DNA of 64,000 nucleotides from Chiloscyllium plagiosum (taxonomy: Eukaryota). The stretch lies in assembly GCF_004010195.1 (NCBI RefSeq), contig NC_057718.1:639893-703892 (forward strand), in the 5' to 3' direction. The first letter of the stretch is position 1. The number at the start of each line of letters is the position of its first letter. Below the pieces are notes generated by a model. It was not told the origin of the DNA and ran no database searches. It saw only the letters and a list, made by a program, of their open reading frames with translations. Below are positions 8,252 to 61,981 of the stretch, piece after piece. The position numbers and the translations under genes are program-made.

Positions 8252-8438
8252 CTAACCATATTAATGGCTTTTTAGTCAAGCCCAGGAGCAAATCCTTTCT
8301 TAACAACCCCTTAGTTGAAACTTTATTGCTGGAACAGCACAGCAGGTCAGGCAGCATCCAGGGAACAGGAGATTCGACTAACCATATTAATGGCTTTTTA
8401 GTCAAGCCCAGGAGCAAATCCTTTCTTAACAACCCCTT
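8252..8438. repeat. Perfect 61-bp direct duplication (8252-8312, 8378-8438) flanking a 65-bp PLE terminal-repeat fragment
   Basis: Two identical copies of ctaaccatattaatgg...aacaacccctt; the spacer contains gctggaacagcacagcaggtcaggcagcatcc. Confidence 0.95.
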
Positions 8439-9322
8439 GTACTTACCTCTTCCTTCCTTTTGCTGACCCCCTTTATTCTGCCCTCTTGCTTCACACCATC
8501 TTGCTCTGCCCACCTATTACTCTATCCCCTCGCTTATACTGTTTTGATCTGCCTCTGACTCTTCATCTTTCTCCACTCTTCTGTCTGCTGATCACTTTGG
8601 GTGACACCATGTCTTTTTCTGACTATCTCTTACTAACCCCAACCTGCCACTCCTCTATAACATGTGCGTAATTCTACATCTTACATTTTCAGACGTCTGC
8701 ATCTTACCGTTAATTTTCGGATATTTATCTTTGACTGTTTTTACCTCTGATTGCTGCCACGTGTCCATTTGACCGTTCATGTCTGTGCTGCTGTCCTCAA
8801 TTTACATAAAGGACAATTTAACTTGTGATCTCTCCCAGTCTTCTCCCCTTCTCACTTTATCCAAATCTCAATCCAATTTCCTAATCCCCTAATTGAACCT
8901 ACCTCCAGCAGACTTTTAATTGTCACATCCTCGCCCCTAATCACAACTTCATCGTGAATACACTTTTGTACAGGATGCCATGTTTCTTTATTAATTTTTA
9001 AAAAAAATCTTTCCTCACTAGTTCTTGCGTGTTCCATCAATAAGGAACAATGTTTTCCCCACATATGCTAGCCAGACATCTCATTATTTTGAGTGCTTTT
9101 ATCAAATCTCCTTTCAGTGTTCTCCAAGGAAAACAGTCTAAATCCCTCCAGTCTATTTACATAATGAAGTCCTTTGTCCCTGGGACCCTTCTTGTCAATT
9201 TTTTCTGCACCACGTCTAGAGTAACAATTCTGTGATTCTAAGCTTGTATATTGGATGCAAAGCTATTAATGAAAAATGATTGATCTTTAATTTAGTGAGC
9301 TAAATTTGTTTGTATTCACCAG

Positions 9323-9460
9323 GATTAATGGGGTCAGTCCAAAGGTAACGAAAATTATTCAAATGTTGCGACTCCGTCAACTCTACAATGGCTCTTTTGT
9401 CAAACTGAACGAGAAATCATTGAAAATGCTGAAGATGGTGGAGCCTTATGTTGCCTGGGG
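9323..9460 (+). CDS. RPL7L1: RPL7L1 internal coding exon (138 nt; not in the ORF track)
   Basis: attcaccAG acceptor, GTAAGG donor; encodes [46 protein letters not shown] (uL30 family LRL..NG.FVKL and VEPYV.WG motifs). Confidence 0.95.
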
Positions 9461-10469
9461 GTAAGGATTGTCAATCAACAGATTCAAAAAAGAAATACGT
9501 TTGTTTCTGATGAAAAGCGGGATAAAGGGCTGTGAAGAAGATGCAGGAGAGTGGAGTTGAGACCTTAGTAAGATCACCCATGATGATGTTAAATGGTGGA
9601 GCCGTCTGAATGGACTGAATTGCCTGCTCCCACTCCTAATTCCTGTGTTCCACTGTCAATCTGACCCATTATGTTACATATCAGAGACTCCATAACAAAG
9701 GATCTCTTAGTCAATGAATGGTATATTTGGCTCAGTGTAAGATTGTCTTACAAATGGGAAGGCAAATTTGAGTCGGAAAATAGTTGACTGTTAACTGTCC
9801 TCTACATGGCCTACCAAGCCATTCAGTTGTATGAAATTGCTACAAAGTCCCACGAAGGAATTAAACCATTTGGTCCACCTGGCATCAACTTTGATGCAAG
9901 GGCAAATCAGGCCTTGTTGATAGTCCTCTTCATGACTATCTGGGCACTTGTGCCAAAATTGGAAGAAATGTTCCACAGACTAGTTAAGCACCAGCTTGAT
10001 ATTGTGAGTATAATTATTAGACATCACTATACCCCCAGAGGAAGGAGCTGCCCTGAGAGTCTTCCACATTGACTCTGACTCTAGGCCCAGTGAAGTTTCA
10101 TAGCATCAGGTAAATGTGAACAAAGTAACTTCAGGCTGATTACAATGCACTCTTCCCTCAGTTAATGAATCAGTGCTCCTCAACCATCCTAAATGGGATA
10201 GATTTTGAATCTTCTGGCTGAGGCTGCCATACAGGTCTGGCCTTTTGAACCTTGCCCCTGGCCTGAACATGGTGACTCTCAGGTTAAACTCACCACTAGT
10301 ACTCTCTTTGAATGAGCAGCTATGGTTTGCTGGCATTAAAGCTACATTAGACTTCATCAGATCAAAACTGTGCACCTACAAGGTGCTATGGACTTCTTCC
10401 TAAGGATGCAAGTACTGAATTGAAGGAGGTGAACTGTGAAATTCCTGAGTTGATTGGCATAAGAAGTGA

Positions 10470-13400
10470 GGAGGGATTGGAGTTTTGGTGGGTTTAAAAG
10501 TAGACATATCCCTAGGTCCAGATGAATTGTTTCCCAAGTTGTTGTGAAAGACAAGGGAGAAAATAACAAGGTCCCTAATTACCAGAGCAGGTACCAGAGG
10601 AATCGAGGACAGCTGATGTGATATTACTTTACAAAAAGGGTGGTAGAGGTAGACCAGGGAATTATGGCACTGTGAATTTCTTACCAGTGGCAGGGAAACT
10701 ATTGGAGAAAATCACGAGGGGAAATAATTAATCCCCATTTTAGAAGGTGAGTTTGATCAAGGATAGACTGCGTGGTTTTGTCAGAATGGAGGTCATGCCT
10801 AACGTATTTGACTGTATCTTTCAAGAAGTTGACTGAGTGTGTAGATGAGGGTAGGGCAGTTGATACAGTTTATATGGATTTCAGCAAAGTCTTTGACAAA
10901 GTCCCAAATGGAAAACTGATAAAGAAGGCAAAAGCACGTGGGATCCAAAGTAACTTGGCAGGGTGGATCCAAAATTAGCTTAATGGCAAGAAACAATGTG
11001 GTAGTGAAAGGCTGTTTGTGTGACTGGAGGCTGGTGTCCAGTAACATTCCATGTGGATCAATGCTGGGCCCGTTATTGTTTGTGATGTTCATGACAATGT
11101 GGCGGGGCGATGGTAAGTTTGTCGATGAAATCTACAATAGTCTGTAGAGTGGGCTCTTTTTGGTTCTGTCTCTTGATTAAAATTTAAAAATATAAAACAT
11201 AGGTACTAAGTCAGCCTAGAGCAGGGGTTTTTAGAACAATAAGATTGTGCTATTTTCTGGATCTATAGATTGCTAAGGTGGAAAGATGGCCTTTGGTTGA
11301 GTGCTCTTTCTGTCAGATGTGGTAGATTAGGGAGAGTTTCTATGTGACTGATGATTATGTTTGTAAAGAGTATGTTTATTGCAAATCCTATCAGATTGCA
11401 TGGATCAGTTGGAGGCAATGAGGAACTTGTATGAGCTCAGAGGTGTGATGGATGGCAGTTGGTGGAAGGGAGAAAAACTGCAGATACACAGTCAGGTAAA
11501 AGGGTTATCCCTAGGATAGGTAGGAGAAGGAGGCAGGTAGTGAATGAGTCTCCTGCAGCTATTCCCAAGTCAGCTAGGTTTACTTGCTGAATTGGAAGGT
11601 TCATTTCCAGATGTTTCATCACTCTACTAGGTAACATCTTCAGTGGGCCTCAGGCGAAGCACTGCTGATAAATTCCTGTCTTCTATTTATATGTTTGGGT
11701 TTCTTTGGGTTGATGATGACATTTCCTGTGGTGATGTCACTTCCTGTTCTTTTTCTCAGGGGGTGGTCGATGGGGTCGAACTCTTATGTGTTTGTTGATA
11801 GATTTCCGGTTGGAATGCCATGCTACAAGGAATTCTCGTGTGTCTCTCTGTTTGGCTTGTCCTAGTATGGATGTTTTGTCCCAGTCGAAGTGAGGGTAGG
11901 AATGGGAAGACGAAGCAGCTGAATGTGTGGCTGAGAAGCTGGTGCAGGGGAGAAGAATTCACATTTTTGGATCTTTGGAATCTCTCCTGGGATAAAAGTG
12001 ACCTGTATAAGAAGGATAAATTGTACCTGGATATACTGGCAGGGAGGTTTGCTAGAACTGCTTGGGAGGATTTAACCTAGTACAGTTGGGAGGGGTGGGA
12101 TCCAAGGAGATAGTGAGGAAAGAAATCAGTCTCGGACTGGTACAGTTGGGAAAAGGAGCAAGTCAAACAGTCAGGGCAGGGAGCAACGCAAGGAATGAGT
12201 TAAGATTGATAAATTAAATTGCACTTATTCAATGCAAGAGGCCTAACAGGGAAGGCACATGAACTCGGGGCATGGTTAGAAACATGGGACTGGGATATCA
12301 CAGAAATTACTGAAACATGACTCAAGGATGGACAGGACTGGCAGCTGAATGTTCCAGGATACAAATGAACAATAGAATCGGGTGCAAGAGAGGAGGGGGA
12401 GTGGCATTTTTGACAAGGGATAGCATTACATCTGTACTTTGGGAGGATATTCCTGGGAATACGTCCAGGCAAGTTATTTGGGTGGAACTGACAAACAAGA
12501 AAGGGATGATCACCTTATTGGGATTGTATTATCGACCACCTCAATAGTCAGTGAGAAATTGAGAAGGAAATTTGTAAGGAGATCTCCGTTATCGGTAATA
12601 ATAATAGGGTGATTATGGTAGGCAATTTTAACTTTCCAAACATGGACTGGGACTGCCATAGTGTTAAGAGTTTAGATTGAGAGGAATTTCTGTACAAGAG
12701 AAATTTTTGATTCAGCATGTGGATGTACCAATTAGAGAAGGTGCAAAACCTGACCTATTCTTGGGAAATAAGGCAGGGCAGTTGCAGAGCCCCTTGGGCC
12801 AGTGACCATAATTCTGAGTTTTTAAATAGTAATGGAAAAGGATATACTGGATCTAACTGTTGGTTAGATCCTGAAGAAGGGCTTATGCCCGAAACGTCGA
12901 TTCTCCTGTTCCTTGGATGCTGCCTGACCTGCTGCGCTTTTCCAGCAACACATTTTCAGCTTCCTGTCAATGTCCCATTGCAACCTACAACAGCCCTCCA
13001 CACTACCCACAACTCCATCAACCTTCTCATATGTTACGTCTTTCATTGCTGGGATCTTTCTTGTGAATCTCCCCTGGACCCGCTCCAAGATTGTTCACAG
13101 TACTCTCAAAATGGTCTGGTCAGAGCCTTATAAAGCCTCAGAAGTGCATCCCTGCGTTTATATTCTAATTCTCTAAAAATGAATGACAACATTGTACTTG
13201 CCTTCCTAACTACCAACTCAACCTGCAAGTTTATCTTAAAGAGAATCCTGGACTCGGACTCCCAAATCACTTTGTGCTTCAGACTCCTGGATTTTCTGGT
13301 CATTTAGAAAATAGTCCATGCTTCTATTCTTCCTACCAAAGTTCATGACCTCACACTTTCCCATTTGTAAAACTCACACAACAAGAACATTCTGCACCCT

Positions 13401-13700
13401 CTCTGAGACATCCTTGATCCTGGCACCAGGGAAGCAACACACCATTCTGATGTTTCGCTGCTGACCACAGAAACGTCTGTACCTCGGACGAGAGAGTCCC
13501 CAACACAATCGATTGCTTGGAACCCAACGTACCCCTCATTAGGTTAGAGCCAGTCTCAATACCAGAAACTTGGCTGCTCTTGCTGCATTACCCTGAGTGT
13601 CCATCACCCCCACATTTTCCAAAACAGCATGCTTGTTTGAAATGGGGATAGCCACAGAAGACTCCTGCACTACCTGTCTGCCTCTCTTACCTTTCCTGGA
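10470..13700. mobile_element. Decayed CR1 fragments (RT, ORF1, endonuclease) interrupted by PLE pieces at about 11570-11890 and 12870-12960
   Basis: [41 protein letters not shown] motifs. Confidence 0.8.
12871..12898 (+). ncRNA. Minimal type I hammerhead ribozyme core (family A), sense strand in an RPL7L1 intron
   Basis: CUGAAGA-A-GGGC-UUAU-GCCC-GAAA-CG-UC: conserved core, 4-bp stem II, palindromic ACGU in place of stem III; activity not shown. Confidence 0.7.
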
Positions 13701-14213
13701 GTTAATACAGTCATGTAGATGGGTACATTGTTGCCATTAGGATAAGCTTTTAATTCCAGATTTTATTGAATACAAGTTTTGCTATCTGTGACAGCAGGAT
13801 TTGAATCACACTCAGCAGGACATTAGCTTGGTGTCCAGTGATGTTATTGTTATACCACTGTGTCCCCTGAAGCTTTTCTAATTATGTTATGTGGTTTGTA
13901 TCAAATTCTGTTTGGTACAATCCCTGTGAGGAGTCACTTTGTGAAGGTTTGCTACATTCAATCTGCTGTATAAATGTAAATTGTTGATTTGCAGGTTCAA
14001 ATCTTTGGAGTTGAACTCAGGGACATGTGCTACTGACTATACCGTAGATATAGAAGGGAGGCAGGGTCGTGCTCTTCATTAATGATGAGATTCAGGCAAT
14101 AGGCAGAGATGATATAGGATCTAAGGAGCAAAATGTTAGCGGGTTTTGAGAAAATTTGTAGCTCAGGTTGAGGTTCTGGATGTAATTTGCTCACTGAGCT
14201 GGAAGGTTCGTTT

Positions 14214-14253
14214 TCAGACGTTTCATCACCCTACTAGGTAACATCATCAGTGA
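14214..14253 (-). ncRNA. Minimal hammerhead core (family C, Poseidon-like terminal repeat)
   Basis: Reverse strand UCA-CUGAUGA-U-GUUACC-UAGUAG-GGUGAU-GAAA-CG-UC-UGA; stem I UCA/UGA; inside a short PLE repeat at about 14140-14260. Confidence 0.6.
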
Positions 14254-16020
14254 GCCTCCATCCAGCAAAGTGTTAATCCATTTGGGTGGAGATCAGGAAT
14301 AGTAAGGGGGAAGAGGTCACTGATGAGAGTAGTCTATAGGGCATCCAATAATAATGCTATAGTGGCACAAGTGATCAATGAGGAAATATCTGACATATGT
14401 AAGAATGGAAAGGCAGTAGTCAAGTAGGACTTTAACATGCACATTGATTGGCCGAATCAAGTTGGCGGAGGTAGTCTTGAAGATGGGTTTGTAGAACTAA
14501 TCCATTATAACTTTCTTGAACAGCATGTTACCAAATCTACAAGGGCACATGCAATCTTAGATCTGGCCCTGCGTAATGAGATAGGTAAAATTAATTATCT
14601 CGTAGTTAATGATTCTTTGGGAAAGAGTGATCACAGTATGGTTGAATTTTGGATACAAATGGAGGATGATATAGTATCATCTAAAACCAGGGTGTTATGC
14701 TTAAACAAGGGAGACTATAATGGGATGAGGAAGGAGTTGGTTAATTAGACTGGGACCACAATTTATTTGGTGGAACAGTGGAGGGCCTTCAAAGAGATTC
14801 TTCGCAGTGATTAAAGAAAGTGTATTCTGGTCAAAAACAAGGATAGCAAGAGTAGGAAGAGCCAGCCTTGGATACCCAAGGAAATAAAGGAAGGCATCCA
14901 ATTAAAAGCTCAGGCTGACAAAGTAGCCAAGAGGAGTGGGAAACAGGAAGATTGGGTAAATTTTAAAAAGCAATAAAGAATGGAAAAATAGATTATGAAT
15001 GCAAGCTAGCATAGTATATAAAACAGGTAAGAATAGTTTTTATAAGTATCTAAAATGGAAAAGAGTGGCTAAAGTGGACATAGGTCCCTTGCAGGATGAG
15101 AAAGTGGAATTAATATTGAGTAATACTGAAACAGCCAAGGCTTGAATAACTATTTGGTGTCAGTCTTCACAATGGGAGGTGTGTCTAACATGCCAAAGGA
15201 TGTTCAGGATACAATGGGAGGTGAGGACCTCAATTCAATTGTTATCACTAAAGCAGTAGTGTTGAGCAAACTTGAGAGTCTAAAGGTAGATAAATCCCTG
15301 GTCCTGATGGAGTGCATCCCAGGGTGCTGAATGAAATGGCGGAAGTTATAGTAGGTGTGTTAGTGTTAATTTACCTAAGTTTACTGGACTCCAAGCAGGT
15401 CCCAGCATACTGGAAGTCCGTGAATGTCACGCTGCTGTTTAAAAAAGTGTGCAGGCAAAAGGCAGGTAACTTAAGATCTGTAGTCAGGAAAATGCTGGAC
15501 CTATTATTAAAGAAGAAATAGTGAAACATCTGGATTGAAAGAGTTCCATCAGGCATACGCAGCATGAATTCAGGAAGGGAAGGTCATGTTTGACAAACTT
15601 ACTGGAGTTCTTTGAGGATGTAACAAGCATGGTGGCTGGAGGGGAAAAGGTGGATGTTGTACACTTGGATTTCCAGAAGGCATTCGATAAGATGCCACAT
15701 AAAAGACTCATCCGTAAGATAAGGATGCATGGAGTTTTGGTGAATGTACTAGCATGGATAGAGGACTGGTTAACCAATAGAAAGCAGAGTTTTGGGATAA
15801 ATGGGTGTTTCTCTGGTTGGAGATCAGTGGTGACCAGGGTACTGCAGGAGTTAGTGTTGGGCCTGCTACTGTTCATGAAACACATTAATGATTTGGAAGA
15901 AGAGACTGAGTGTAACATCCAAGTTTGCTGATGACACTAAATTGAGTGGAAAAGCAAAATATGCAGATGTGAAGGGTCTGCAGAGAGATTTACATAGATT
16001 AAGGTTAAAAATCACACAAC

Positions 16021-16228
16021 TGAAAATGTGTTGCTGGAAAAGCGCAGCAGGTCAGGCAGCATCCAAGGAGCAGGAGAATCGACGTTTCGGGCATCAGCCC
16101 TTCTTCAGGAACGGCTCATGCCCGAAATGTCGATTCTCCTGCACCTTGGATGCTGCCTGACCTGCTGCGCTTTTCCAGCAACACATTTTCAGCTCTGATC
16201 TCCAGCATCTGCAGTCCTCACTTTCTCC
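16021..16228. mobile_element. Fold-back family A PLE mini-element with 15-bp TSD, nested in a family B fold-back element (about 16001-16427)
   Basis: Inverted arms about 16021-16104 and 16115-16192; TSD taaaaatcacacaac at 16006-16020 and 16229-16243. Confidence 0.88.
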
Positions 16229-17029: not shown

Positions 17030-18800
17030 GTGGATGTAAGTTTGCTAGAAGGTTCATTCATTTGCAAACGTTTCTTCACCATTCTAGGTAACACCACCAT
17101 TGAGCCTCCTACTTATGTGTTATGTGCTATTGAGTTTTCTATCTTTGTGTTTGGGTTTCCTTGGGTTGGTGATGTCATTTCCTTTGGTGATGTCAGTTCC
17201 TATTCTTTTTCTCAGCGGGTGGTAAATGGGGTCAAAGCCAATGTGTTTATTGATAGAGTTTAGATTAGATTAGATTACATTAGATTAGATTGCATTACAG
17301 TGTGGAAACAGGCCCTTTGGCCCAACAAGTCCACACCGACCCGCTGAAGCGCAACCCACCCATACCCCTACATTTACCCCTTACCTAACACTACGGGCAA
17401 TTTAGCATGGCCAATTCACCTGACCTGCACATCTTTGGACTGTGGGAGGAAACCGGAGCATCCGGAGGAAACCCACGCAGACACGGGGAGAACGTGCAAA
17501 CTCCACACAGTCAGTCACCTGACGTGGGAATTGAACCCGGGTCTCTGGCGCTGTGAGGCAACAGTGCTAACCACTGTGCCACCGTGTCGTTCTGGTTAGA
17601 ATGCCATGCATCTAGGAATTCTCGTGCATGTCTCTGTTTGGCTTGTCCTAGGATGGATGTGTTGTCCCAGTCGAAGTGGTGTCCTTCGTCATCTGTATGA
17701 AAGTTTACTAGTGAGAGTGGGTTGTGTCTTTTTGTGGCTAGTTGATGTTCATGTATCCTGTTGGCTAGTTTTCTGCCTGTTTGTCCAATGTAGTGTTTGC
17801 TACAGTTCTTGCAAGGTATTTTGTAAATGATATTAGTTTTGCTTGTTGTCTGTAAGGGTCTTTTAAGTTCACTAGCCGCTGCTTTAGTGTGTTGTGGGCT
17901 ACCATGATGCCAAGAGGTCTGAGTCGTTTGGCAGTCATTTCCGAGATGTCTGATGTAGGGGAGAGTGGCTAGGGTTTCTGGGTGCGTTTTGTTTCCTTTT
18001 TTGGGTTTGTTGCTGAGAAATCGGCGGACTGTGTTCGTTAAGTACCCATTCTTTTTGAATACACTGTATAGGTGATTTTCTTCTGCTCTTCGTAGTTCCT
18101 CTGTGCTGCATTGTGTGGTGGCTCATTGAAATAATGTTTTAATGCAGCTTTGTTTGTGGGTGTTGGGATGGTTTGTTTCTGTCGTTCAGTATTTGGTCAG
18201 TATATGTTGCTTTCCTGTAGATGCTGGTTTGAAGTTCCCCATTGGCTGTTAGCTCTACTGTGACATCTAGGAATGGCAGTTTGTTGTTATTTTCCTCCTC
18301 TTTAGTGAATTTTATGCCAATAATTTAATGCCAAGAACTGTATCAAACACTGCATTGGACAAACAGACAGAAAACTGGCCACCAAGATACATGAACACCA
18401 ACTAGCCAAAAAAGCGACATGACCCACTCTCACTAGTATCCTTACATATAGATGAGGAAGGACAACACTTCCACTGGGACAACACATTCATCCTAGGACA
18501 AGCCAAATACAACATGCACGAGAATTCCTCGAAGCATGGCATTCTAACTGGAACTCTATCAAAATAACACATCAACTTGGACCCCATTTACTACCCTCTG
18601 GAAAAAAAGAACATGAAATGACATCACCAACCCAAGGAAACCTAAACACATAAATAGAAAGTGGGTCACTAACACCAGTGCTTCACTGGAGGCTCAATGA
18701 TGGTGTTACTTAGTATGGTGACGAAATGTCTGAAAATGAACCTTCCAGCTCAGGGAGCAAGCCAACATCCAGAACCCCAACCTGAGCTACAAATCTTCTC
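17030..18800. mobile_element. Poseidon-like PLE 3' fragment (minus) with an inverted copy of its terminal region (plus, about 18325-18800)
   Basis: GIY-YIG region on both strands; terminal repeat ...cctgagctacaaatcttctc; interrupted by an HE1 SINE. Confidence 0.85.
17260..17587 (-). mobile_element. HE1-type tRNA-derived V-SINE, near full length
   Basis: Reverse strand: A box GGTGGCACAGTGG, B box GGTTCAATTCC, central GTGTGGAGTTTGCACGTTCTCCCCGTGTCTGCGTGGGTTTCCTCC, (TCTAA)n tail. Confidence 0.9.
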
Positions 18801-20578: not shown

Positions 20579-20714
20579 CTGATTGGTTATATTCCATCCC
20601 TCTTCAAAAAACAAGAGGAATAATCTTGTCAACTTCAGGCTATTCACTCTAATGAGGGAAAACGACTTGAGACCATTGTCAAGAACAGGATTTGTTTTCA
20701 CTTACAGAGAGGTT

Positions 20715-23105: not shown

Positions 23106-23328
23106 GTCGAGAGTGTGGTGCTGGAAAAGCACAGCAGGTCAGGCAGCATCCAAAGAGCAGGAAAATTGATATTTTAGGCAAAAGCCCTTCATCAGAAAAC
23201 CTTCCTGATGAAGGGCTTTTGCCCAAAACATCAACTCTCCTGCTCCTCGCATGCTGCTTGACCTGCTGTGCTTTTCCAGCAACACACATTCAGCTCTAAT
23301 CTCCAGCATCTGCAGTCCTCACTTTCAC
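23106..23328. mobile_element. Fold-back family A PLE mini-element with two decayed hammerhead cores and a 13-bp TSD
   Basis: Inverted arms; gcccttcatcag / ctgatgaagggc centre; TSD gtagg(c/t)ataatgg at 23093-23105 and 23329-23341. Confidence 0.85.
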
Positions 23329-24027: not shown

Positions 24028-24796
24028 AGGTAAAGGGATAGATTTGAATTGCCCTCCATGCAGATTAAAGTCAAAGGAGGTTGAAGTGCATTGATTGCCT
24101 AGATATGAAATTGGTTAAAATGACTTGTAAAGACCTTTTTTTGGGGGCTATATACTTAAAAAAAAAAATACTGGTTGAAACAGAGGACTCTGGAACGTGA
24201 TGTTACAGTTTTAGTAGAACTCATTAAGATTGTACTTAATGTTGCCTTATTTTCACAGTGAGGGATAATGCTAGACATTTCCTTACCACGTGATTGTGTT
24301 CAGAACAGTCTTGCCCAGAAAACGTTTGTTTTTTTTCCATCAGAATCAACTGTGTGCTGAAGAATGCGCAACATCATAACTTCCTGATAGAAAACAAAAA
24401 CAGAAATTGTTGGAAAAACTCCTTGGGTTTGCAGCATCAATGGAAAGTGATGTTCAGAAGAAAGTTCACTGGACCTGAAACGCTAACTCTGGTTTCTGTC
24501 CACAGGTATTGCCAAACCTGCTGAGTTTTTCAACAATTTCTGTTTAGTTTTTGGTTTCCAGCATCCACAGTTCTTTTGTTGTTTTCTTTAGTTTTTAACT
24601 TCTTGTTAGGTTCTTGGGCGAGTAGCTGAAGCCTTGTTAGTAGATGTGAAGCTGGAAAAGCACAACAGGTCATACAGTATCCGAGGAGCAGGAAAGTCAA
24701 CAATTCAGGCCAAAACCCTCCTTTAGGAGGCTAAAGCCTTGTGTTTGAACAACAGAGGGGCTTGTAGCCTACAAACAGAAAGCACCAATGCCCATA

Positions 24797-33150: not shown

Positions 33151-33331
33151 TATTTACCTTTTACCCCTTCAACCCCCACACTCACCCTACCTTTACAAAA
33201 AAATATACATTTTCCTAGCCACCATCAGTTCTGAGCAACTGTCACTTGACCTGAAATGTTAACTGACCTCTCTCCACAGATGCTGCCAGACTTGCTGAGA
33301 TTTTCCAGCAATTTCTGTTTTGGTTGAGGGT

Positions 33332-40949: not shown

Positions 40950-41470
40950 TAGTGAATTTTGAGAAGATTTGTAGCTCAGGTTGAGGTTCTGGATGTAGAT
41001 TTGCTCACTGAGCTGGAAGGTCCATTTTCAGATGTTTCGTCACCACAATAGGTAACATCTTCAGTGAGGACAAACAAGCAGAAAACTAGCCAGCAGGACA
41101 CATGAACGTCAACTAGCCACAAAATGCATGACCCTCTCTTACTAGTAACCTTACATACAGATAAGGAAGGACACCACTTCGACTGGGACAACACATCCAT
41201 CCTAGGACAAACCAAAAAGAGACATGCACGAGAACTCTATCAACAAACACATTGACTTGGATCTCATTTATCACCCCCTGAGAAAAAGAACAGGAAATTG
41301 CGTCATCACAGGAAATGACACCACCAACCCAAGGAAACCCGAACATATAAATTGAAAGCAGGAAAAACTAGCAGTGCTTTGTCCGGAGGCTCACTGAAGA
41401 CGTTACCTAATATGGTGACAAAACGTCTGAAAATGAACCTTCCAGTTCAGCGAGTAAACCTGTATCCAGT
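40950..41470. mobile_element. Poseidon-like PLE terminal fragment with an inverted terminal repeat
   Basis: Minus-strand repeat 40950-41068 and plus-strand repeat 41385-41470, each with a family C hammerhead remnant. Confidence 0.82.
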
Positions 41471-53445: not shown

Positions 53446-54949
53446 TAATCACATAACTGTAACAGTGCAGATAGAAGCCATTCAGCTCATCGTTTCTACA
53501 CCAGCTCTGTTACCTAATGTCAGTCTCCTACCTTTTTCCCTATTATTCCTACACACTAATTCTCTCAGAATAATCATCCAGTACCCTCTTAAATGCCTCA
53601 TTGAACCTGTCTCCACCTCATTCCCAGGCAGTGATTTCCACACCCTGACTACTTGCTGTGTGGAGAATTTTTTTTTCTTCTATTACCCTTGCTTTAAATC
53701 TATGCCTTTTCATTGCTTTTTCTTTTGAGTAGGAGCAGCTTCTCCCTTCTCCAGAGAACTCATTTTGAAAGTGTATGTCAAAACTCACCTCTGCCACCTT
53801 CTTGAGGTCCAGACTTATCACAACTGAAATTTCTCATTCCAGGCACCAATTTTGTAAATCACTTTACAAATTTCAATGTACTTACATCTTTATCATGTGG
53901 TGTCCACAAACGTACACTGTACTCCAACTGAGGTCTTTTCTCCAAGTTCAACAAGACCTTCCTGCTTGTGCTCTATGCCCTAATTAGTAAAGCTGAGAAC
54001 ACTATGCTTTATTAACTGTTCTGCCCTCCTGTCCTGCCACCTTCAATGATCTGCACAAATAGGGAAGGAAAGTTTTGATATTTTAGCCATGCTCTTCCAA
54101 AACACACACTTCAGGAATATTTGTCAGTGTCACTTCTTATTCATGAAATAGTGAGAAAGTGTAGCACAAACTGTATATACATTAGTCTAATATCAGTTGT
54201 GTGAAAGTTACTAGAATCTGTGAGGGACAACATTGCTAAACATGTGGACAATGAGATGTTTAGAGAGTACTGTTTTCTGAAGATTGAGACATATTTACCA
54301 AAACTAATTCCCCACTGAAACACTCAAGTGTTCAAGATAAGATGCCTATACAGTTATTATAAATGAATTGTATAGAAGGCATTCAACAACAAACTCTCTC
54401 CAAAAATAAGAATGCATGGGATTAGAGACAAACCAGTTGTCTTGAAAAGGGAAAAAATTCACTGTTCTGAAGAAGGATCACTGGACTGGAAATATTAATT
54501 TGCTTTCTGTCCACAGATGCTGCCAGACCTGCTGAGTCTTCCAAGCAATTTCTGTTTTTGTGTCTTGAAAAAGGAATTTGTTATGGAATAAGAGATAGAA
54601 AAGGAGATAATAGATGTATACTAAAGTTTGCAAATGGTGTTCACCAGAAATTTGTTCTTGAGTGTTTACTAAAGTTCTGTTTGATGAAAGATGTTCAGGG
54701 GAGGATGGAACGAGTTCAGAGAGGTGATAGCCTAGAGATATTATCACTAGACTGTTAATCCACAGACTCAGGCTTGAATTCCACTGCAGCAGATTGTTAA
54801 ATTTGAATCCAATTTTAAAAATTCTGTAATAAAGAGGCCAATGATGGCTGTTGTGGATTGTTGGAAAAGCCTACCTGGGGTTCACTAAGGTCCTTTAGGG
54901 AAGGAATTCTGCCAAACTTAATTGGTCTGGTTAATATGACTACAGACCC

Positions 54950-55700
54950 TTTTAACTCCCTTTTTTCTTTAACTCCTCCCATTTCCTCCATTTCAAAGAG
55001 GTGGCCATGGGTACCCAGATGGGCCCCAGCTATGCCTGCCTCTTTGTTGGCTATATCGAACAGTTCCTCTTCAGTACCCCAACTCTTCCACCATTACATT
55101 GATGACTGCATTGATGCAGCGTCCTGCATCCAGGCTGAACTGGAGCAGTTCATGGACTTAGCCCACAGCTTACACGCCGCCCTCAAATTAACTTGGTCTT
55201 TCTCAGACACCTCCCTCCCCTCTCTTGACCTCACCATTTCCATCTTCGGTGACAGTCTCCAGATGGACGTTTACTCTAAACCCACAGACTCCCATTACTA
55301 CCTTGACTACACCTCCATCCACCCCATGTCCTGCAAGAACTCTATCCCATTCTCCCAATTCCTCTGCCTCCACTGCATCTGCTCGGACGAGGAGATATTC
55401 CATTCGTGAGTATCCAAATGTCCATATATTTCAAACAGTGTGCTTTTCCTCCCTCTGTCATCCAGATAGCTCTCCGCCGCACCACTTCCATTCTCTGTTC
55501 CAGTGCTCTAAACCCCCCCCCAGGAACGCAGTAAAGACAGAGTCCACTCGTCCTCACCTACCATCCCACCAATCTCCACATCCAACGCATCATCCTTAAA
55601 CATTTTTGCCAACTCCAACTAGACCTCACCACCAAGAACATCTTCCCCTCCACACACCTCTCTGCCTCCACAAGGACCATTCCCTTTGACAGTCCTTGGT
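54950..55700 (+). mobile_element. Neptune-like PLE reverse transcriptase fragment
   Basis: GVAMGT.MGPSYACLFVG, YIDDC, LPSLD, YSKPTDSHYYLDYTSIHP, SIPFSQFL. Confidence 0.88.
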
Positions 55701-56149
55701 TTGTGCACTCTATATTATGCACAGATATTTCAGAATCCATGTACAGAAATGTCAAAAACTCAGTCATCAATTAAAAGTAATATCAGAAAGAACAAAGGAA
55801 TGGTGAACTTTATCTTAATTAAATGGCAGAATACCAAAGAGCGAAATTGTTTAACCCAATCTAAGCTCTGACAGGGGAAACGACCCTTTACCTCAACAAA
55901 TGGCCACCCTCAGCCTTTGCAGCCCAGTTGAGAGTCTCAGCAACAATCATTTCTGGAAGGGCCGTACGGAGGCCAACGCAGCTGAGGGACATGAAGAATG
56001 GGTCGAGCACAATGGCTACCTGATCCAATTACTGCTTACATTTGGCAATCGGGCACCTTTCAGCAGTTCAGTGAAGACGCCAATCCCTGGGTATCAGACA
56101 GCGAAGCCAAAATTAAAATGGAACTTAATGGCCAAGGCTTGGAAAGAAC

Positions 56150-56355
56150 TGAAAATGTGTTGCTGGAAAAGCGCAACAGGTCAGGCAGCTTCCAAGGAGC
56201 AGGAGAATCGACGTTTCGGGCATAAGCCCTTCTTCAGGCTTATGCCCGAAACGTCGATTCTCCTGTTCCTTGGATGCTGCCTGACCTGCTGTGCTTTTCC
56301 AGCAACACATTTTCAGCTCTGATCTCCAGCATCTGCAGTCCTCACTTTCTCCTCG
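56150..56355. mobile_element. Fold-back family A mini-element with an intact hammerhead core (minus, 56210-56237) and a 16-bp TSD
   Basis: Near-perfect inverted arms; TSD aaggcttgg(a/t)aagaac at 56134-56149 and 56356-56371. Confidence 0.9.
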
Positions 56356-58914
56356 AAGGCTTGGTAAGAACCAAGTATGAATCCAACATGTACTGGGCAC
56401 AATCCCAAGATAATTTAAGGAGACTCCATCTACAAGAGCCATCCAGGACCTGTCAGCAGTTGCAAGATTCAAGAGCTTGACATTGATCATGGTGAAGCGG
56501 CCTAGAGTCATGACCAAAACCAGTGGTATGAGGATTCACTGGAATGTCTCACGAATGAGTTAAAGCCAGCTGAACAAAGTGTTTGAGATTCTGTGGACAC
56601 TCTAGCTATGTCCGATATCACAGGCACCAAACTCTTGAGCATCAAAATTAATGAATATTTATCATTTTAGAAAACAAATTTATGTATTAATTGTAAGAAT
56701 TATGGTCACTTAATTACAAATATATCAGAGGAAACGTTTCTAAACTTTAGTAATTATGTAATTGAACTGAATTCAGATTGGTTCCACATGTTAGCGTAAT
56801 ATCGAGAGCTGAATGGCCTGTACTGCGCTGTAATGTTCTATGTTCTAATTGTGTTCAGGTCCCTGCATTTCAGGAAAAATGTAAAAACAGAAAATGCTGG
56901 AAGCATCTGTGGAGTGAGAAACAGATTTCTGTCAGGAAGGTTAAATTGGCTATTTCATGGAAACAGTACTGATTCTTTCTCCAGAGGATCTCTTTTTTTA
57001 TTAAAATATTAATTAACACTGCTTCACTGCAAAGTATTAGATCCAGAATAACGTTGTGCCTGATCGAGTCCATGCACACATTCCAAGGGAACTATCATGA
57101 AAACATTCTACAAACCAAGTTTAGCTTTTTTACATGGAAAAACATGGGTTGATAAGGAAGAGTCAGCATAGATTTTTAAAGGGTCAATCGTATTTCACAA
57201 ACTTGGAGGTTTATGCAATGGGTTTTACATGGATTTGATACAGTGCCTCACATCAGACTTGTGTAGAAAATTGGAGGTCATGGTATAAGAGGACCAGTGG
57301 CCACATGGAATCAAAATTTGCTGAGTGATAGAAAACACAGCAGTCTTGGTCAATGGATACTTTTCAGGCCGGAGGAAGACTTTTTTAGCAGTTTGTGATC
57401 ACAGTTACCTAAAACTGGTGGCTGACGATTTGTAAGTAATTTTCTGATAATTTGAGTTTAATAATCAGTTTAGCTATGATGCAGTGTTTAATCAGATAAA
57501 ATATACAACGTGACAATTGGAAATAGTTCACTAACATCAGAGAACAAAGAGGTTGTCATAGCAGACGATTTTGGTCTCATTAAAATGATGGGGGCAGCAT
57601 CCTACTCTCTAGCCAAGGTGTTTGGGAACTCTTCTTTCGGTCTTCTTTCTCTCCTTCTGATCTGTTTGCTATCTGTCTGATAATGACTGCTTGATGAAGT
57701 CTGGGCACTCTCCAAACAGCTGCCTCTCAGGTCTGTTTGATGCGAACTGCTCTGTGAGAAAATGCCCCTCTGCCCCAGGCGGTTATTGCTATTGTATTTC
57801 TCTGGGTAGGTAACTTAATCCGTGTCAATTAGTTGTCTGAACTCTTTTGGCTAATGGCCATAGAACAGCTACTCATGATGTCAGATAATCGTCATCCCAT
57901 TGCCTGCCCTAATCTGACCGTGGGCTTACCGTTCTCTGGATGTAAGTTAGCTTGCTGAGCTAGAAGGTTCGTTTTCAGACATTTCATCACCATGCTAGGT
58001 AATATCATCAATGAGCCTCTGGTGAAACACTGGTGGTATGGCCTGCTTTTTATTTATATGTTTAGGTTTCCTTGGGTTGGTGATATCATTTCCTGTGGTG
58101 ATGTAATTTCCTGTTCTGTTTCTCAGGGGTGGTAAATGGGATCCAAGTCAATGTGTTTGTTGATACAGTTCCAGTTGGAATGCCATGCTTCTAAGAATTC
58201 TCGTGCGTGTCTCTAGCTTGTTCGAGGATGGATGTGTTGTCCCAGTCAAAGTGGTGTCCTTCCTCATCTGTATGTAGAGATACTAATGAGAATGGGTCAT
58301 GTTGTTTTGTGGCTAATTGATGTTCATCTTATCAAGGTGGCTAGTTTTCTGCCTAATTGTCCAAAGTAGTGTTTGTTACAATTCTTGCAAGGTATTTTGT
58401 AAATGACATTAGTTTTGCTTGTTGTCTGTATAGGGTCTTTCAAGCTGCTGTTTTAGTGTGTTGGTGAGTTTGTGGGTTACCATGATACCAAGAGGTCTAA
58501 GTAGTCTGGCAGTCATTTCAGAGATGTCTTTGATGTAGGGGAGAGTGACTAGGGTTTCTGGATGTGTTTTGTCTGCTTGTTTGGTTTGTTGCTGAGAAAT
58601 CGATGGACTGTGTTCATTGGGTACACCTTTGTTTTGAATACACGGTGTAGGTGATTTTCTTCTGCTCTTCATAGTCCCTCTGTGCTGCAGTGTGTGGTGG
58701 CTCGTTGAAATAATGTTCTGATGCAGCTTTGTTTGTGGGTGCTAGTTTGAATTTCCCCATTGGCTATTCGCTCTACTGCGACATCTAGGAATGACAGTTT
58801 GTTGTTGTTTTCCTCCTCTTTAGTGAATTTTATGCCAGTAAGGGTATTATTGATGGTCTTGAAGGTTTCCTCTCATTTGTTTCGTTTAGTGATGACAAAG
58901 GCATCATCCACGTA

Positions 58915-59370
58915 TGTTTTAAAAAATTCTCAAGGTCAGGTTCGTAGGAGAGTAGTCTGACACAGAACAAACGACCAAGAGGCGAGTCTGCTAGAATATG
59001 GGCATTTTATTCCCCGCAGCGTCACCACAACCAACGGGTCTGGCTTATACTCACTCTACATGTTACCGGAACTGGGAGCCGTCAGTTCTCGTAGAGCGGT
59101 TGCCAACAACACACGCTCGGCGGTTAAACGTAACCCCGGAGCAGACTCACCGAACTGGAGACTTTTCCAGCTGATATACTCTTTTCCAGATATAAACATT
59201 CATGTGAACAGCAGAGCAAGGCTAAAAAACACATTCCATTCTGGTTACATACAGATAAGAAGATTCACACGGGGAGGTGTGTAATAAGATTCACACGGGA
59301 CTAAGCAACACCTCCATTCCGGTTAGATTCACACATGTATTGGGACATAATTTTTAACCGTTTCACCACA
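58915..59370 (-). mobile_element. Solo LTR (456 bp, TG...CA) with 5-bp TSD
   Basis: ACGTA at 58910-58914 and 59371-59375; TG/CA termini; AATAAA on the minus strand at 59006-59011. Confidence 0.85.
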
Positions 59371-60344
59371 ACGTAGCGGACCCAAAGTTTGGGTTGGATG
59401 GTTGGCAGAGCTGTTTGTTCGAGTCTCTGCATTACTGATTCTGCTAAGAACCCTGATATCGGAGATCCCATAGGTGTTCCGTTGGTTTGTCTGTAGGTTT
59501 TGTTGTTGAAGGTGAAGTGGGTGGTGAGCATAGGTCTACTAAATTGACGATACTGTCCTTGTTGATGAGGTTGACGGTTTTGGGGTATGTGTCTTTGGTT
59601 CTTCTAATAGTGTAGTCAGTGTTTCCTTGGCCAGATTGATGTTGATGGATGTGAACAGGGCTGTTACGTCAAAGCAGACCATTATTTCAACCTCTTCTAT
59701 CTTGGTGTCTTAATTCTTCAGGAATTCTTGGGTGGAGTGGTGTGAGTCTACTAAGTGTTTTAGTCTTTGGTGTAACTCCTTGGCCAGTCTGTTAGTTAGT
59801 GTTCCAGGTAGTGAGACTATGGGTCTGAGGGGGATTCCTGGTTTGAGAGTTTTGGGTAATCCGTAAAAGCGTGGTGTGTTGGATCCATCTGGTTTCATTT
59901 TTTGGAAGTTGATCTTATTTATTTCTCCAGATTTCTGAAGCTTTTTGAGTATGGCTGTGGTTCAGTTCTCTAGTTGTGGGGTCGGGTCTGTCACCACCTG
60001 TTTGTAAGTGTTGGTATCTGCAAGCAGTGTGTTCACTTTCTCAATGTAGTCTCTTTGATTTAAAATGATTGTCAAGTGTCCTTTGTCTGCAGATAGGATC
60101 ACAATATTTTTTATCTTTCTTGAGTCCTTCCAGCGTTTTCCTTTCTTGTGTATTGAGTGCTTTTCCTTACTTTTTCCTGCTTAATGTTGGTAGAATTGTC
60201 TGTCTGATGGTTTGCTGTTTCTTCTGTGAGCTTGTTGCCTTTCAGTGTTGTTTCTAATGCTGCTAATAAATCTTTCTCGTCTGCATCCTGTAAGTAATTT
60301 AATCCTCTTACTAATACGGCTTTTCAGTGTTTGTTAAGGGTTGG

Positions 60345-61357
60345 TCAAATTCTTTGAAGAGGTGACAAGTAGGTTAGACCAGGGAAACCCAGTGGATGTG
60401 GTCTATCTAGACTTCCAAAAGGCCTTTGATAAGGTGCCACATGGGAGGCTGCTGAGCAAGGTGAGGGCCCATGGTGTTTGAGGTGAGCTACTGGTATTGA
60501 TTGAGGATTGACTGTCTGACAGAAGGCAGAGAGTTGGGATAAAAGGTTCTTTTTCGGAATGGCAGCCGGTGACAAGCGGTGTCCCGCGGGGTTCAGTGTT
60601 GGGGCCGCAGCTGTTCACGTTATATATTAATGATCTGGATTAAGAGACTGGGGGCATTCTANNNNNNNNNNNNNNNNNNNNNNNNNNNNNNNNNNNNNNN
60701 NNNNNNNNNNNNNNNNNNNNNNNNNNNNNNNNNNNNNNNNNNNNNNNNNNNNNNNNNNNNNNNNNNNNNNNNNNNNNNNNNNNNNNNNNNNNNNNNNNNN
60801 NNNNNNNNNNNNNNNNNNNNNNNNNNNNNNNNNNNNNNNNNNNNNNNNNNNNNNNNNNNNNNNNNNNNNNNNNNNNNNNNNNNNNNNNNNNNNNNNNNNN
60901 NNNNNNNNNNNNNNNNNNNNNNNNNNNNNNNNNNNNNNNNNNNNNNNNNNNNNNNNNNNNNNNNNNNNNNNNNNNNNNNNNNNNNNNNNNNNNNNNNNNN
61001 NNNNNNNNNNNNNNNNNAGTGGACGCTAGGAAATTGTTTCCGTTAGGTGAGGAGACTAGGACCCATGGACACAGCCTTAGAATTAGAGGGGGTAAATTCA
61101 GAACAGAAATGCGGAGACATTTCTTCAGCCAGAGAGTGGTGGGCGTGTGGAATTCATTGCCGCGGAGTGCAGTGGACGCCGGGACGCTAAATGTCTTCAA
61201 GGCAGAGATTGATAAATTCTTGATGTCACAAGGAATTAAGGGCTACAGGGAGAATGCGGGTAAGTGGAGTTGAAATGCCCATCAGCCATGATTGAATGGC
61301 GGCGTGGACTTGATGGGCCGAATGGCCTTACTTCCACTCCTATGTCTTATGGTCTTA
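60345..61357 (+). mobile_element. Young-looking 5'-truncated CR1 inserted in the PLE, spanning the assembly gap
   Basis: [45 protein letters not shown]; CpGs retained. Confidence 0.88.
60662..61017. other. Assembly gap (N run)
   Basis: 356 consecutive N. Confidence 1.
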
Positions 61358-61859
61358 AATAAGTCTTTTTTAATCCATGCTTCTGTGTTGTTATTTTGTA
61401 TAAGTTTGTGTAGTTTTTTCTCTGCAGGTTTAGTTTTTTTTCCATTTTCTGTGTTTGTCTCAGTCTAACGTCTGTGGCATGTTGTACTTTGTCTGTCCAT
61501 TCATGGTCTGTTGCATTAGTGAGTAAAAAGTTTTGGTTGCGAAAGCTAAACACAGAAATAAAAAGCGGGCTATATCACCAGTGTTTCACCAAAGGCTCAC
61601 TGAAGATGTTACCTAGTGTGGTGACGAAACATCTGAAAATGAACCTTCCAGCTCAGTGAGCAAACTTCGATTCAGAACCTCAACCTGAGCTACAAATCTT
61701 CTCAAAACTCACTAGTTTACCATTCTTTTTAAGAAAAAATACTTCTTATTTTTAAAAACAACACACTGACAATAGGGTGCTTTTGGCACCAGATAAATTG
61801 ATGACGCAAGTTCAATGGACGTATTCTTCCTTTGTTTTCATATGCTAGACTTTTGGAAA

Positions 61860-61981
61860 CGAGCTGGAAATGTGTTGCTGGAAAAGCGCAGCAGGTCAGG
61901 CAGCATCCAGGGAATAGGAGAATCGACGTTTCGGCATAAGCCCTTCTTCAGGAAACTTCAGACTTCTTCAGACCCTTCTTC
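61860..61981 (-). mobile_element. Family A mini-element with 13-bp TSD and a stuttered junction
   Basis: TSD agacttttggaaa at 61847-61859 and 61982-61994; hammerhead core with a one-base deletion in stem II. Confidence 0.82.

Follow-up and report, generated by a model that had tools for sequence, protein, structure and literature searches.

Short repeats with a hammerhead motif in Chiloscyllium plagiosum as probable leader-only insertions of a coding Penelope-like element

The 64,000-nt stretch of Chiloscyllium plagiosum DNA analyzed here (the window) carries 11 insertions of a short unit of 95 or 125 nt, four of which are fold-backs. The unit is not a separate non-coding family; it is the pseudo-LTR, or leader, of an autonomous endonuclease-bearing Penelope-like element (PLE). 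We consider it probable (at about 0.7) that the short (mini) copies are leader-only, i.e. pseudo-LTR-only, insertions of this element, generated by internally primed TPRT near the 5′ end of its RNA.

The first-pass annotation had attributed the copies to a PLE and to retrotransposition, and rightly so: the units belong to a PLE and were inserted with their own target-site duplications. It had also proposed a separate non-coding family mobilized in trans, a view that was abandoned because the unit is the coding element's own leader and terminal repeat. The label of a retrozyme-like, ribozyme-processed element, attractive but wrong, has thus been removed, and a very abundant short repeat, which repeat annotators could easily mistake for a SINE, a MITE or a satellite, is now tied to a coding parent. 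A 35-mer spanning the hammerhead motif was found 37,177 times exactly in the genome (at least 37,177 heads), and the density in a 239-kb sample was about one insertion per 8 kb.

The coding parent of the unit

At 30 loci outside the window, the unit continues directly into a 5′UTR and an ORF that encodes a Penelope N-terminal part, an RT and a GIY-YIG part. The 157 nt downstream of the tail recur at 95–98% identity: all of the 40 candidates scored (out of 2700 from a first pass) matched, and 30 made loci. The tail lies directly upstream of this segment in 28 of the 30, while the remaining two are cut off at or next to that point. The frames downstream of the 5′UTR encode PLE-like N-terminal sequence.

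No full-length uninterrupted ORF was readable, N runs being present at the expected place in L066, L067, L059, L049 and L031, and the coding evidence is thus a composite of copies with deletions or decay. RT motifs were identified in L045 (RVT_1, E 0.0083, below the Pfam cut-off, as in every copy examined) and a GIY-YIG domain in L046 (23.3 bits; cut-off 22.6). In L062, an RT (with an RYIDD motif), the endonuclease, the 3′UTR and the unit follow one another in sequence without any N, and P0002, which is 60% identical to the endonuclease, carries RVT_1 and GIY-YIG on a single chain. The order of the full element is (i) the unit (hammerhead motif plus tail), (ii) about 45 nt, (iii) the ORF (N-terminal part, RT, GIY-YIG), (iv) a 3′UTR of about 175 nt, and (v) the unit again. 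The RT is thus followed by a C-terminal GIY-YIG in one ORF, as in endonuclease-bearing PLEs, with no intact ORF readable. The unit precedes the 5′UTR and recurs after the 3′UTR in L036, L045, L046, L058 and others, which makes it a pseudo-LTR. With regard to the Neptune-like affiliation put forward in the first-pass annotation, a CX2CX2CXH motif upstream of the GIY-YIG domain in L046 and L062 could not be distinguished from the CCHH motif general to PLE endonucleases.

It is unlikely that the minis form a true non-autonomous, SINE- or retrozyme-like family, whose pseudo-LTR-only copies would be transcribed and recopied in trans by the PLE enzyme, perhaps after hammerhead processing. Such a family would fit the very high copy number and the discreteness of both ends. 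According to the available parts of the literature, published pseudo-LTRs carry promoters and rotifer pseudo-LTRs alone moved a host gene (PMC3846280), and a preprint (10.64898/2026.07.22.740005) argues for a derivation of animal retrozymes from PLE pseudo-LTRs and reports retrozymes in one cartilaginous fish. However, minis and the leaders of coding copies have the same loop and stem variants, and further observations against this family are given below.

Copies of the unit within the window

A profile of the unit, built from 30 genomic copies, recovered all of the unit sites listed in the first-pass annotation (8313, 12873, 16015/16108, 23109/23208, 31233/31300, 31604, 40270, 56145/56236 and 61839). 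It added copies at 24642–24723, 26631–26697 and 31783–31847, as well as a diverged one at 3062–3173. The core motif gave five matches with at most three mismatches (12871+, 16081−, 23205+, 40268+ and 56210−) against 0.00 expected from shuffled controls, and the tail motif seven against 0.01 expected. Repeat detection recovered the core and tail families as repeat families D1, D2, D7 and D17.

The solo long-form unit at 40264–40390 (plus strand) runs from ATTCCTGAAG to CACTTTCTCC. Its hammerhead-like core occupies 40268–40295, with a cut predicted after 40295; the 34-nt tail is present, and the flanks, TCACAA(C/G)TTTAAT, form by eye a 13-bp repeat with one mismatch. Two solo units are of the short form: that at 12869–12961 (plus) ends with TTTTCAGCT and lacks the tail, and a longest-exact-match search revealed no clear target-site duplication at its flanks, while that at 61860–61982 (minus) has a 12-bp duplication, TTTCCAAAAGTC, identified by eye. 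At the 5′ junction of the latter, the first 5–10 nt are present in three successive copies (TGAAGAAGGG, TGAAGAAG and TGAAG, separated by TC or TT) ahead of TCCTGAAGAAGGGC. A short-form copy at 8313–8378 (minus) starts with GTCGAATC, its 5′ end lying 3 nt before the predicted cut. Older material is represented by a diverged solo short-form unit at 24642–24723 (minus; 9-bp flanking repeat) and a unit fragment at 26631–26697 (minus; 10-bp flanking repeat).

Fold-backs are common, as the first-pass annotation held, and its claim of at least four was confirmed for four. The head-to-head fold-back at 16015–16228 is composed of a short-form left arm (16015–16106, minus) and a long-form right arm (16108–16228, plus), and a longest-exact-match search found a 15-bp duplication, TAAAAATCACACAAC. 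In the fold-back at 56145–56352, the short arm (56145–56235, minus) and the long arm (56236–56352, plus) meet at the center CTTCTTCAGGCTTATG, with AAGGCTTGG as a 9-bp flanking repeat. An older fold-back at 23109–23327 (short arm 23109–23192, minus; long arm 23208–23327, plus) has a core with three mismatches and a flanking direct repeat of only 7 bp. In the fourth (31233–31401), also with one short and one long arm, both heads are cut back by about 20 nt, and hence the hammerhead core is missing; it is flanked by the 11-bp duplication ACATAATCTAG and lies within an older endonuclease relic.

The copy at 31604–31847 (minus) is a composite, in which the tail plus the first approx. 50 nt of the element's 5′UTR (31847–31733) abut a second full unit (31727–31604).

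Flanking repeats had been described as 11–16 bp long and once 61 bp. The 61-bp direct repeat was found again, at the flanks of 8313–8378, and several others fall within the range; repeats of 9, 9 and 10 bp were also found, so the range was slightly too narrow.

The hammerhead motif and the 5′ ends of the copies

Read directly, the motif is CUGAAGA-A-GGGC-UUAU-GCCC-GAA-ACGU-C. As had been proposed, it is a minimal hammerhead motif without stem III, and it resembles the PLE pseudo-LTR hammerheads described in the available text of Cervera and de la Pena (2014, PMC4209133) in (i) the conserved core CUGANGA...GAAA without stem III or loop 3, (ii) the extra base between A9 and G10.1, (iii) the G10.1–C11.1 pair, (iv) the palindromic 15.2–16.2 stretch (ACGU), and (v) the location in terminal repeats. 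Stem II has 4 bp here versus 7–8 bp in the schistosome families. In the predicted stem I, the upstream AUUC and the downstream GAUU pair at only 2–3 positions, versus a stem I of 4–5 bp in the minimal PLE type, and both sides are invariant across subfamilies, so that no covariation is available. No Rfam family reached the gathering score anywhere in the window, and no Rfam hammerhead family was found on 12780–13060 at E up to 10; both outcomes are expected, since the motif lacks stem III.

The 5′ ends of the mini copies pile up at ATTCCTGAAG, the preferred start being the A of CTCATTCCTGAAG. Among 31 insertions in 238,920 sampled bases (approx. 239 kb), 18 have their first base no more than about 10 nt from the unit start, five begin inside the unit, and eight have 3′UTR or N upstream. 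In a second census, of the first 40 intact-head events on another contig (C1), 22 copies start at the unit start, three carry 10–24 nt of the 3′UTR, and 15 carry at least 60 nt of 3′UTR or N. The start is enriched about 70-fold per nt over the next 57 nt upstream (22 ends in about 6 nt versus three in about 57 nt), and four of the seven solo copies of the contig-C1 set start at AT|TCCTG. CTCAT lies upstream of 15,416 of the approx. 37,000 exact heads, which indicates that a large minority of copies extend past the preferred start.

The base that follows GUC is not the start of any of the 31 insertions; the closest starts lie 3 nt to either side of it. The complete hammerhead motif is retained in most copies, and the predicted GUC cut then lies 32 nt inside the copy (22 of 40 on contig C1). 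Plotting the copy ends against the predicted cut thus spoke against a ribozyme-processed RNA, as it does against a non-autonomous family of the retrozyme kind. The hammerhead motif is probably a passenger that does not set the ends of the DNA copies.

The other explanation in the first-pass annotation, random extreme 5′ truncation of full-length PLEs, does not agree with the concentration of 5′ ends at one position. A refined version, which attributes the pile-up of ordinary truncations to stalling of the RT on the hammerhead structure in the 3′ terminal repeat, appears very unlikely to us. Heavy 5′ truncation is known for PLE insertions (PMC8557442, in the part available), and truncations do occur inside the unit (5/31) and in the 3′UTR (8/31). 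A stall would nevertheless be expected before the hairpin is copied, whereas the copies hold the whole motif and end just past its 5′ edge; the approx. 70-fold enrichment also argues against it, and the unit alone has no unusual fold (z +0.47). The stuttered and composite copies described below indicate instead that the template ended at this point.

The only RNA run with raw reads was a polyA single-cell library under another species label, and thus a poor test; it showed no pile-up of read starts or ends. In this library, 93% of the reads that match the unit continue into sequence unlike it, as expected for copies that lie within other transcripts, a point against a non-autonomous family.

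3′ ends, fold-backs and tandem copies

The 3′ ends fall into two classes about 34 nt apart, a spacing that matches the published PLE tail. In an unbiased sample, each of the eight complete fold-backs has the tail on only one of its arms, the arms differing by about 34 nt. One of the eight is a long fold-back in L066 (3441–6368), which has a 13-bp duplication.

Flanking repeats of at least 8 bp (median 13) were found in 25 of 29 fold-backs versus 13 of 812 mismatched control pairs, and target-site duplications of 8–18 bp directly abut the mini copies in 25 of 29 cases. The 29 loci have about 20 distinct center sequences (judged by eye), and rare alleles are common to both arms in six of them versus 10 of 812 cross-locus pairs. 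Each fold-back has its own center junction and its own target-site duplication, which indicates separate events. The variation of the centers between loci, with recurrent center forms falling in different subfamilies, is a further argument against a family that multiplies on its own. The inverted junctions show microhomology.

These data bear on yet another explanation, namely that the minis are solo pseudo-LTRs left by recombination or deletion of the bodies of longer copies, or that the fold-backs are a DNA-level fold-back or MITE-type transposon. Rotifer solo pseudo-LTRs without duplications were ascribed to such recombination or deletion (PMC3846280, available part), but here the duplications abut the copies, the arms are unequal by exactly the tail length, and the sequence is identical to a retroelement leader. 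We regard this origin as highly improbable.

Two further classes of junctions bear signs of a template end: the stutter of the first 5–10 nt at 61950–61982, and composites of the type [1..X][unit from base 1], in which X is different in every locus. Exact head-to-tail junctions number only 18 genome-wide (versus the 37,177 exact heads), and 14 of these have AT before TCCTG. A TRF search of approx. 333 kb, run with the settings of the preprint (10.64898/2026.07.22.740005) as given in its available text, revealed 44 arrays, four of them with a period of at least 80, and no tandem array with a hammerhead core. This scarcity of tandems tells against both the retrozyme-like character claimed earlier and a non-autonomous family.

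A model of leader-only insertion

The preferred start would correspond to the 5′ end of the element RNA, probably to a transcription start inside the pseudo-LTR; its sequence, CTCATTCC, would fit an initiator consensus. By analogy with the Anolis PLE in vitro, the RT would begin copying at internal sites, and each transcript would carry such sites about 95 and 125 nt from its own 5′ end. Priming there would generate a cDNA of 95 or 125 nt that stops where the RNA ends, or a fold-back if both strands of the target act as primers. Stuttered, composite and partial-tandem forms would result when the RT, having reached the RNA end, switches to another template. Most mini copies are probably dead on arrival, because they do not contain the sequence downstream of the start site. 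A requirement for this sequence is known for the Anolis element only, and if it is absent here, long-form minis could be recopied.

More tentatively, each fold-back may have arisen from a single RNA leader that was copied two times by the same dimeric RT-endonuclease particle, from the inner site on one strand and the outer site on the other, with leader-only cDNAs as the commonest product (22/40) and a jump from the RNA end onto the leader creating the pseudo-LTR. This possible but doubtful scheme would explain the single tailed arm (8/8) and the private variants common to both arms; leader-only cDNAs would be the commonest product because every PLE transcript has start sites beside its own 5′ end. 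If it were true, the integration cycle of PLEs, as yet unsolved, could be read from tens of thousands of natural insertions in this genome.

Relation to known elements

The closest experimental parallel is the Poseidon PLE of Anolis carolinensis (Frangieh et al. 2024, PMC11167929), whose RT initiates at a pair of neighboring internal sites corresponding to the 30–40-bp genomic tail, as do the two 3′ ends here. The start region is AC-rich in both elements (CCAGCAACACA here), although the start sites lie 111–118 nt inside the ORF in Anolis and about 45–80 nt upstream of the presumed ATG in our element. In Anolis, cleavage and extension take place on both strands of the target, and insertion persists when the hammerhead, which lies just upstream of the start sites, is mutated; our element would be alike in these two respects. 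Neither system yielded RNA reads ending at the hammerhead cut, which in our case refers to one unsuited polyA single-cell library. The copies constitute a large natural data set on PLE integration (one preferred 5′ end, two 3′ ends, a one-arm tail and junction microhomology) whose features agree with the one in vitro study, and genome-wide mining could test models of internal initiation and pseudo-LTR formation.

Parallels in genomic copies come from sources available to us in part. PLE copies have been described with an inverted copy at the 5′ end and a tail that is often at one end only (PMC8557442). A typical Penelope insertion of the rotifer Adineta vaga (Arkhipova et al. 2013, PMC3846280) has direct pseudo-LTRs, an adjacent inverted one and an 8–10-bp target-site duplication. 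One of the inverted pseudo-LTRs carries a 31-bp tail, the other is shorter by 37 bp, and their junction is palindromic; solo pseudo-LTRs also occur, and the data suggest that pseudo-LTRs alone can suffice in trans. In that species the copies are few and the repeats enclose the ORF, whereas here there is usually nothing between the inverted repeats, and copies number at least tens of thousands. Hammerhead motifs have also been reported as widespread single elements, probably related to truncated PLEs, and as opposite-strand pairs 100–700 bp apart (PMC4209133); in our material, the single copies have a preferred 5′ end in common, and each opposite-strand pair arose in one insertion event.

The minis share with non-LTR animal retrozymes (Cervera and de la Pena 2020, PMC7229834; Li et al. 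2026 preprint; both as far as available) their small size, the lack of coding sequence, a hammerhead motif and a relationship to the terminal repeats of PLEs. Three features set retrozymes apart, namely head-to-tail tandems of approx. 170–400 bp, canonical type I ribozymes, and expression as monomeric RNAs, both linear and circular, that are cleaved at the ribozyme site. The minis showed none of the three, the RNA side being covered by one polyA single-cell run.

Coding relatives within the window

The three coding relatives noted in the first-pass annotation are real. An old, 5′-truncated long copy of a related PLE (2380–3173, plus) consists of a decayed linker-plus-GIY-YIG region (2380–3062; linker and endonuclease, E 3e-52) followed by the diverged unit (3062–3173). 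Endonuclease pieces are present at 31379–31483 and 31855–31947, and a decayed RT-coding relic of the same PLE group occupies 54962–55675 (plus; RT, E 1.5e-68).

Structure of the repeat in the window

The hammerhead-like repeat described in the first-pass annotation is real: its core gave 5 matches in the window (0.00 expected from shuffles) and its tail motif 7 (0.01 expected). With a profile derived from 30 genomic copies, the unit was recovered at all nine places that had been named, and also at 24642, 26631 and 31783, with a diverged copy at 3062. The complete unit copy reads ATTCCTGAAGAAGGGCTTATGCCCGAAACGTC|GATTCTCC...CACATTTTCAGCT[CTGATCTCCAGCATCTGCAGTCCTCACTTTCTCC], in which the last, bracketed part is a 34-nt tail. 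Two alternative 3′ ends were found: the short form stops at ...TTTTCAGCT (e.g. 12961) and the long form includes the bracketed 34 nt (e.g. 40390). Two further statements of the annotation were also confirmed, namely the presence of four fold-backs, i.e. two units head to head within one insertion (16015-16228, 23109-23327, 31233-31401 and 56145-56352), and of flanking direct repeats around most copies, including a 61-bp repeat at 8313. The latter (8252-8440) is longer than the usual 8-18 bp, and may reflect duplication of the local sequence or a staggered cut of unusual width. Another repeat family (33250-33311, 54488-54548, 24473-24574) has only the middle ~60 nt in common with the unit (GATGCTGCC.GAC.TGCTG...TTTCCAGCA), and carries neither the hammerhead core nor the tail.

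The unit is the leader and terminal repeat of a Penelope-like element

In L020, a locus fetched from the same genome, the unit tail continues into further sequence. The first 157 nt of this sequence recur genome-wide at 95-98% identity, with a match in all 40 scored candidates (out of 2700 first-look candidates). Thirty loci were fetched, in 28 of which the unit tail lies directly upstream of the 157-nt segment, while the remaining two copies break off at the segment start or beside it. The linker at 31728-31783, which at first look resembled a 176-nt tandem monomer, was rejected as such, since it is the start of the 5′UTR of the element.

Frames downstream of the leader encode MPSLKKLSS...FLSTCLRNRLTPHGLR. 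Two internally deleted copies carry reverse transcriptase (RT) motifs (L045; RVT_1 E 0.0083, below the Pfam cut-off) and a zinc-finger-like motif followed by GIY-YIG (L046; 23.3 bits against a cut-off of 22.6), respectively, and in a third locus, L062, the order is RT (RYIDD), endonuclease, ~175 nt of 3′UTR and the unit. One database protein, with 60% identity to the endonuclease, combines RVT_1 and GIY-YIG in one chain, and the closest database relatives are two named shark proteins. All clusters returned by a protein cluster search bear PF26215, a lead rather than a test. The tail thus leads through the leader into Penelope-like element (PLE) coding frames, and the unit appears again after the 3′UTR, which identifies it as both leader and terminal repeat (pseudo-LTR) of an autonomous PLE whose coding sequence was pieced together from deleted and decayed copies. 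The unit had been interpreted as a stand-alone non-coding family, which does not agree with its continuation into leader and PLE coding sequence in the fetched loci.

The coding relics in the window (2380-3062, 31379-31947 and 54962-55675) belong, as proposed, to the same PLE group. For ORF 2273-2965, coding signal was obtained only by tblastn across frames; the listed frame had no Pfam match, and BLASTP revealed no similarity to the other PLE endonuclease. No intact full-length PLE ORF could be read among the fetched loci, because several of them read N at its expected place. Such N runs, at the expected coding sequence or abutting the 3′UTR plus unit, occur at 60662-61017 of the window, in L066 (4395-6179) and L067 (6114-6775), and in L059, L049, L031 and L064.

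Copies begin preferentially at the unit start

The 5′ ends of copies were first sampled in 238,920 non-N bases, made up of the window, ten stretches of 10 kb at round coordinates and flanking sequence of 29 fetched loci. Seven of the 47 alignment rows were dropped (two of a search-selected copy, one belonging to a selected element, one truncated by the end of its locus and three short fragments without either end), and the remaining 40 represent 31 insertions. The 5′ end fell within ~10 nt of the unit start in 18 of these, and inside the unit (reference positions 209-226) in five; 3′UTR, coding sequence or N lay upstream in the other eight. The unit copy begins 32 nt upstream of the predicted cut after GUC, and not one of the 31 insertions starts at the base that follows this cut (reference position 223), so that the predicted ribozyme-cut ends were not found.

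The second, positional sample comprised the first 44 arms on one other contig, C1, classified by eye as 40 events. The unit start was used in 22 of them (15 fold-backs and 7 solos, i.e. single units), 10-24 nt of 3′UTR were present in 3, and at least 60 nt of 3′UTR, or a run into N, in 15. The head plus core has 37,177 exact matches of a 35-mer in the genome, and CTCAT stands upstream of 15,416 heads, in line with the C1 share carrying more upstream sequence. Since four of the seven C1 solos start AT|TCCTG and AT is present at 14 of 18 exact tail-to-head junctions, the modal start is the A of CTCATTCCTG. Random 5′ truncation of full-length PLEs, offered in the first-pass annotation as the alternative origin of the copies, is not consistent with this pile-up of starts.

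Fold-backs and composites

The fold-back set consisted of 30 genomic copies of 56147-56353, found among 40 scored of 1030 first-look candidates; one duplicates a neighbouring locus, and the counts use 29. In all of the aligned fold-backs both outer ends are fixed and the inverted left arm lacks the last ~34 nt, and there are, by eye, ~20 different centre junctions. The duplications are specific to each locus: a flanking repeat of at least 8 bp (median 13) borders 25 of the 29, compared with 13 of 812 mismatched control pairs. The first end sample contained eight complete fold-backs, all with the tail on exactly one arm; given ~55% long ends in non-fold-back copies, the chance of this is ~4 in 1000, in a small sample. 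One of the eight (L066) is a long fold-back, whose arms include the endonuclease and 3′UTR, with a 13-bp duplication.

Arms are more alike within a locus (93.7% identity) than between loci (90.6%), and rare alleles are common to both arms in 6 of 29 loci versus 10 of 812 cross pairs; both arms thus stem from one template or one event. In two fold-backs on C1 (L099, 2142967-2143185; L104, 2433879-2434081) both arms include ~60-75 nt of 3′UTR upstream of the unit, so the place of inversion does not depend on where the unit starts.

Stutters and composites are signs that the modal start base is the end of a template. At 61950-61982 a full copy is preceded by three repetitions of the unit's first 5-10 nt. 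Composites, in which a unit with leader up to a position X is followed by a unit from base 1, were observed in the window (31604-31847) and in the series L032-L060 (e.g. L036, 1369-1870). In this series, leader 1..X is fused directly to the second unit, with X ranging from 287 to ~625; other loci carry internal deletions. X differs in every composite, so each represents a separate event and they are not copies of one deleted master. The composites look as if pseudo-LTR formation had been captured midway, through a jump from the 5′ end of the RNA back to the leader.

The hammerhead motif and RNA reads

The motif CUGAAGA-A-GGGC-UUAU-GCCC-GAA-ACGU-C has the features of minimal PLE hammerheads given in PMC4209133: the conserved core, an extra base after A9, the G10.1-C11.1 pair, palindromic 15.2-16.2 and no stem III. 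In this predicted ribozyme, stem I could form just 2-3 pairs with the bases upstream, and there is no covariation for it. A structure-based reading was rejected, since neither the unit (z +0.47) nor the unit plus leader (z −0.79) folds better than shuffles. Rfam gave no family at gathering score in the window, and hammerhead families were absent from 12780-13060 even at E up to 10.

Both a dimeric ribozyme and a retrozyme cycle would depend on head-to-tail units. Only 18 exact junctions of this type exist genome-wide, and TRF, run with the settings of a 2026 preprint, detected no array containing the core in ~333 kb. Together with the lack of starts after GUC, this argues against the retrozyme-like, ribozyme-processed elements originally envisaged.

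RNA reads were mapped to L045:600-1900. One raw run, a polyA single-cell library labelled as another species, gave 2299 reads, a second raw run gave none, and two contig-level runs were unable to show molecule ends. Depth on the unit was ~660-735 in one direction and ~265-420 in the other, against ~1-2 on the 5′ part of the ORF, and 93% of the mapped reads continue into unlike sequence, a pattern that fits unit copies embedded in other transcripts. Read starts and ends did not pile up within this region, which is a weak test of small or non-polyadenylated RNA.

A possible mechanism

From the observed architecture, end distributions, duplications and independence of events, the following mechanism may be suggested. 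The preferred 5′ end of copies would be the 5′ end of the element's RNA; CTCATTCC at this position resembles an initiator. A PLE protein of Anolis initiates cDNA synthesis at two neighbouring sites within the RNA, which match the genomic tail; it cuts and extends both DNA strands, and inserts hammerhead-dead RNA (PMC11167929). With start sites here at 95 and 125 nt from the 5′ end of the RNA, priming at them would yield leader-only cDNAs. Priming on both target strands could generate fold-backs, and jumps from the RNA end could generate stutters, composites and pseudo-LTRs. Since the Anolis enzyme requires leader sequence downstream of the start site and unit-only copies have none, most of these copies are probably dead on arrival.

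According to PMC8557442 and PMC3846280, PLE insertions frequently show both an inverted copy at the 5′ end and a tail confined to one end. A search of papers outside subscription journals returned no account of the shark family, nor of leader-only insertions that share a preferred 5′ end. The new part may be quantitative, i.e. one preferred 5′ end with leader-only copies as the commonest product, a claim drawn from 31 and 40 sampled events plus exact-pattern counts.

Other elements in the window

A second PLE family, mostly on the minus strand (11579-11651, 14186-14258, 17036-17108, 37492-37564, 41000-41072 and 57947-58019, from the window repeat search), has its own minimal hammerhead-like motif, CTGATGA-TGTTACC-TAGTA-GGGTGAT-GAAACGTC. 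Its GIY-YIG-like ORFs (3609-3944 and 17514-18122, minus strand; Pfam E 5e-4, below cut-off) are located ~400 nt upstream of this motif. Pfam also identified RVT_1 fragments of other retroelements, unrelated to the units, at 15539-15928 (plus strand, 41.9 bits) and 45176-45562 (minus strand, 41.7 bits), both above the cut-off, and at 59304-59603 (minus strand). Finally, a 291-aa open frame on the minus strand (944-1816) encodes a GDSL/SGNH lipase-like domain (PF13472, E 9.3e-12, above cut-off), and may represent a host exon or a LINE esterase domain.
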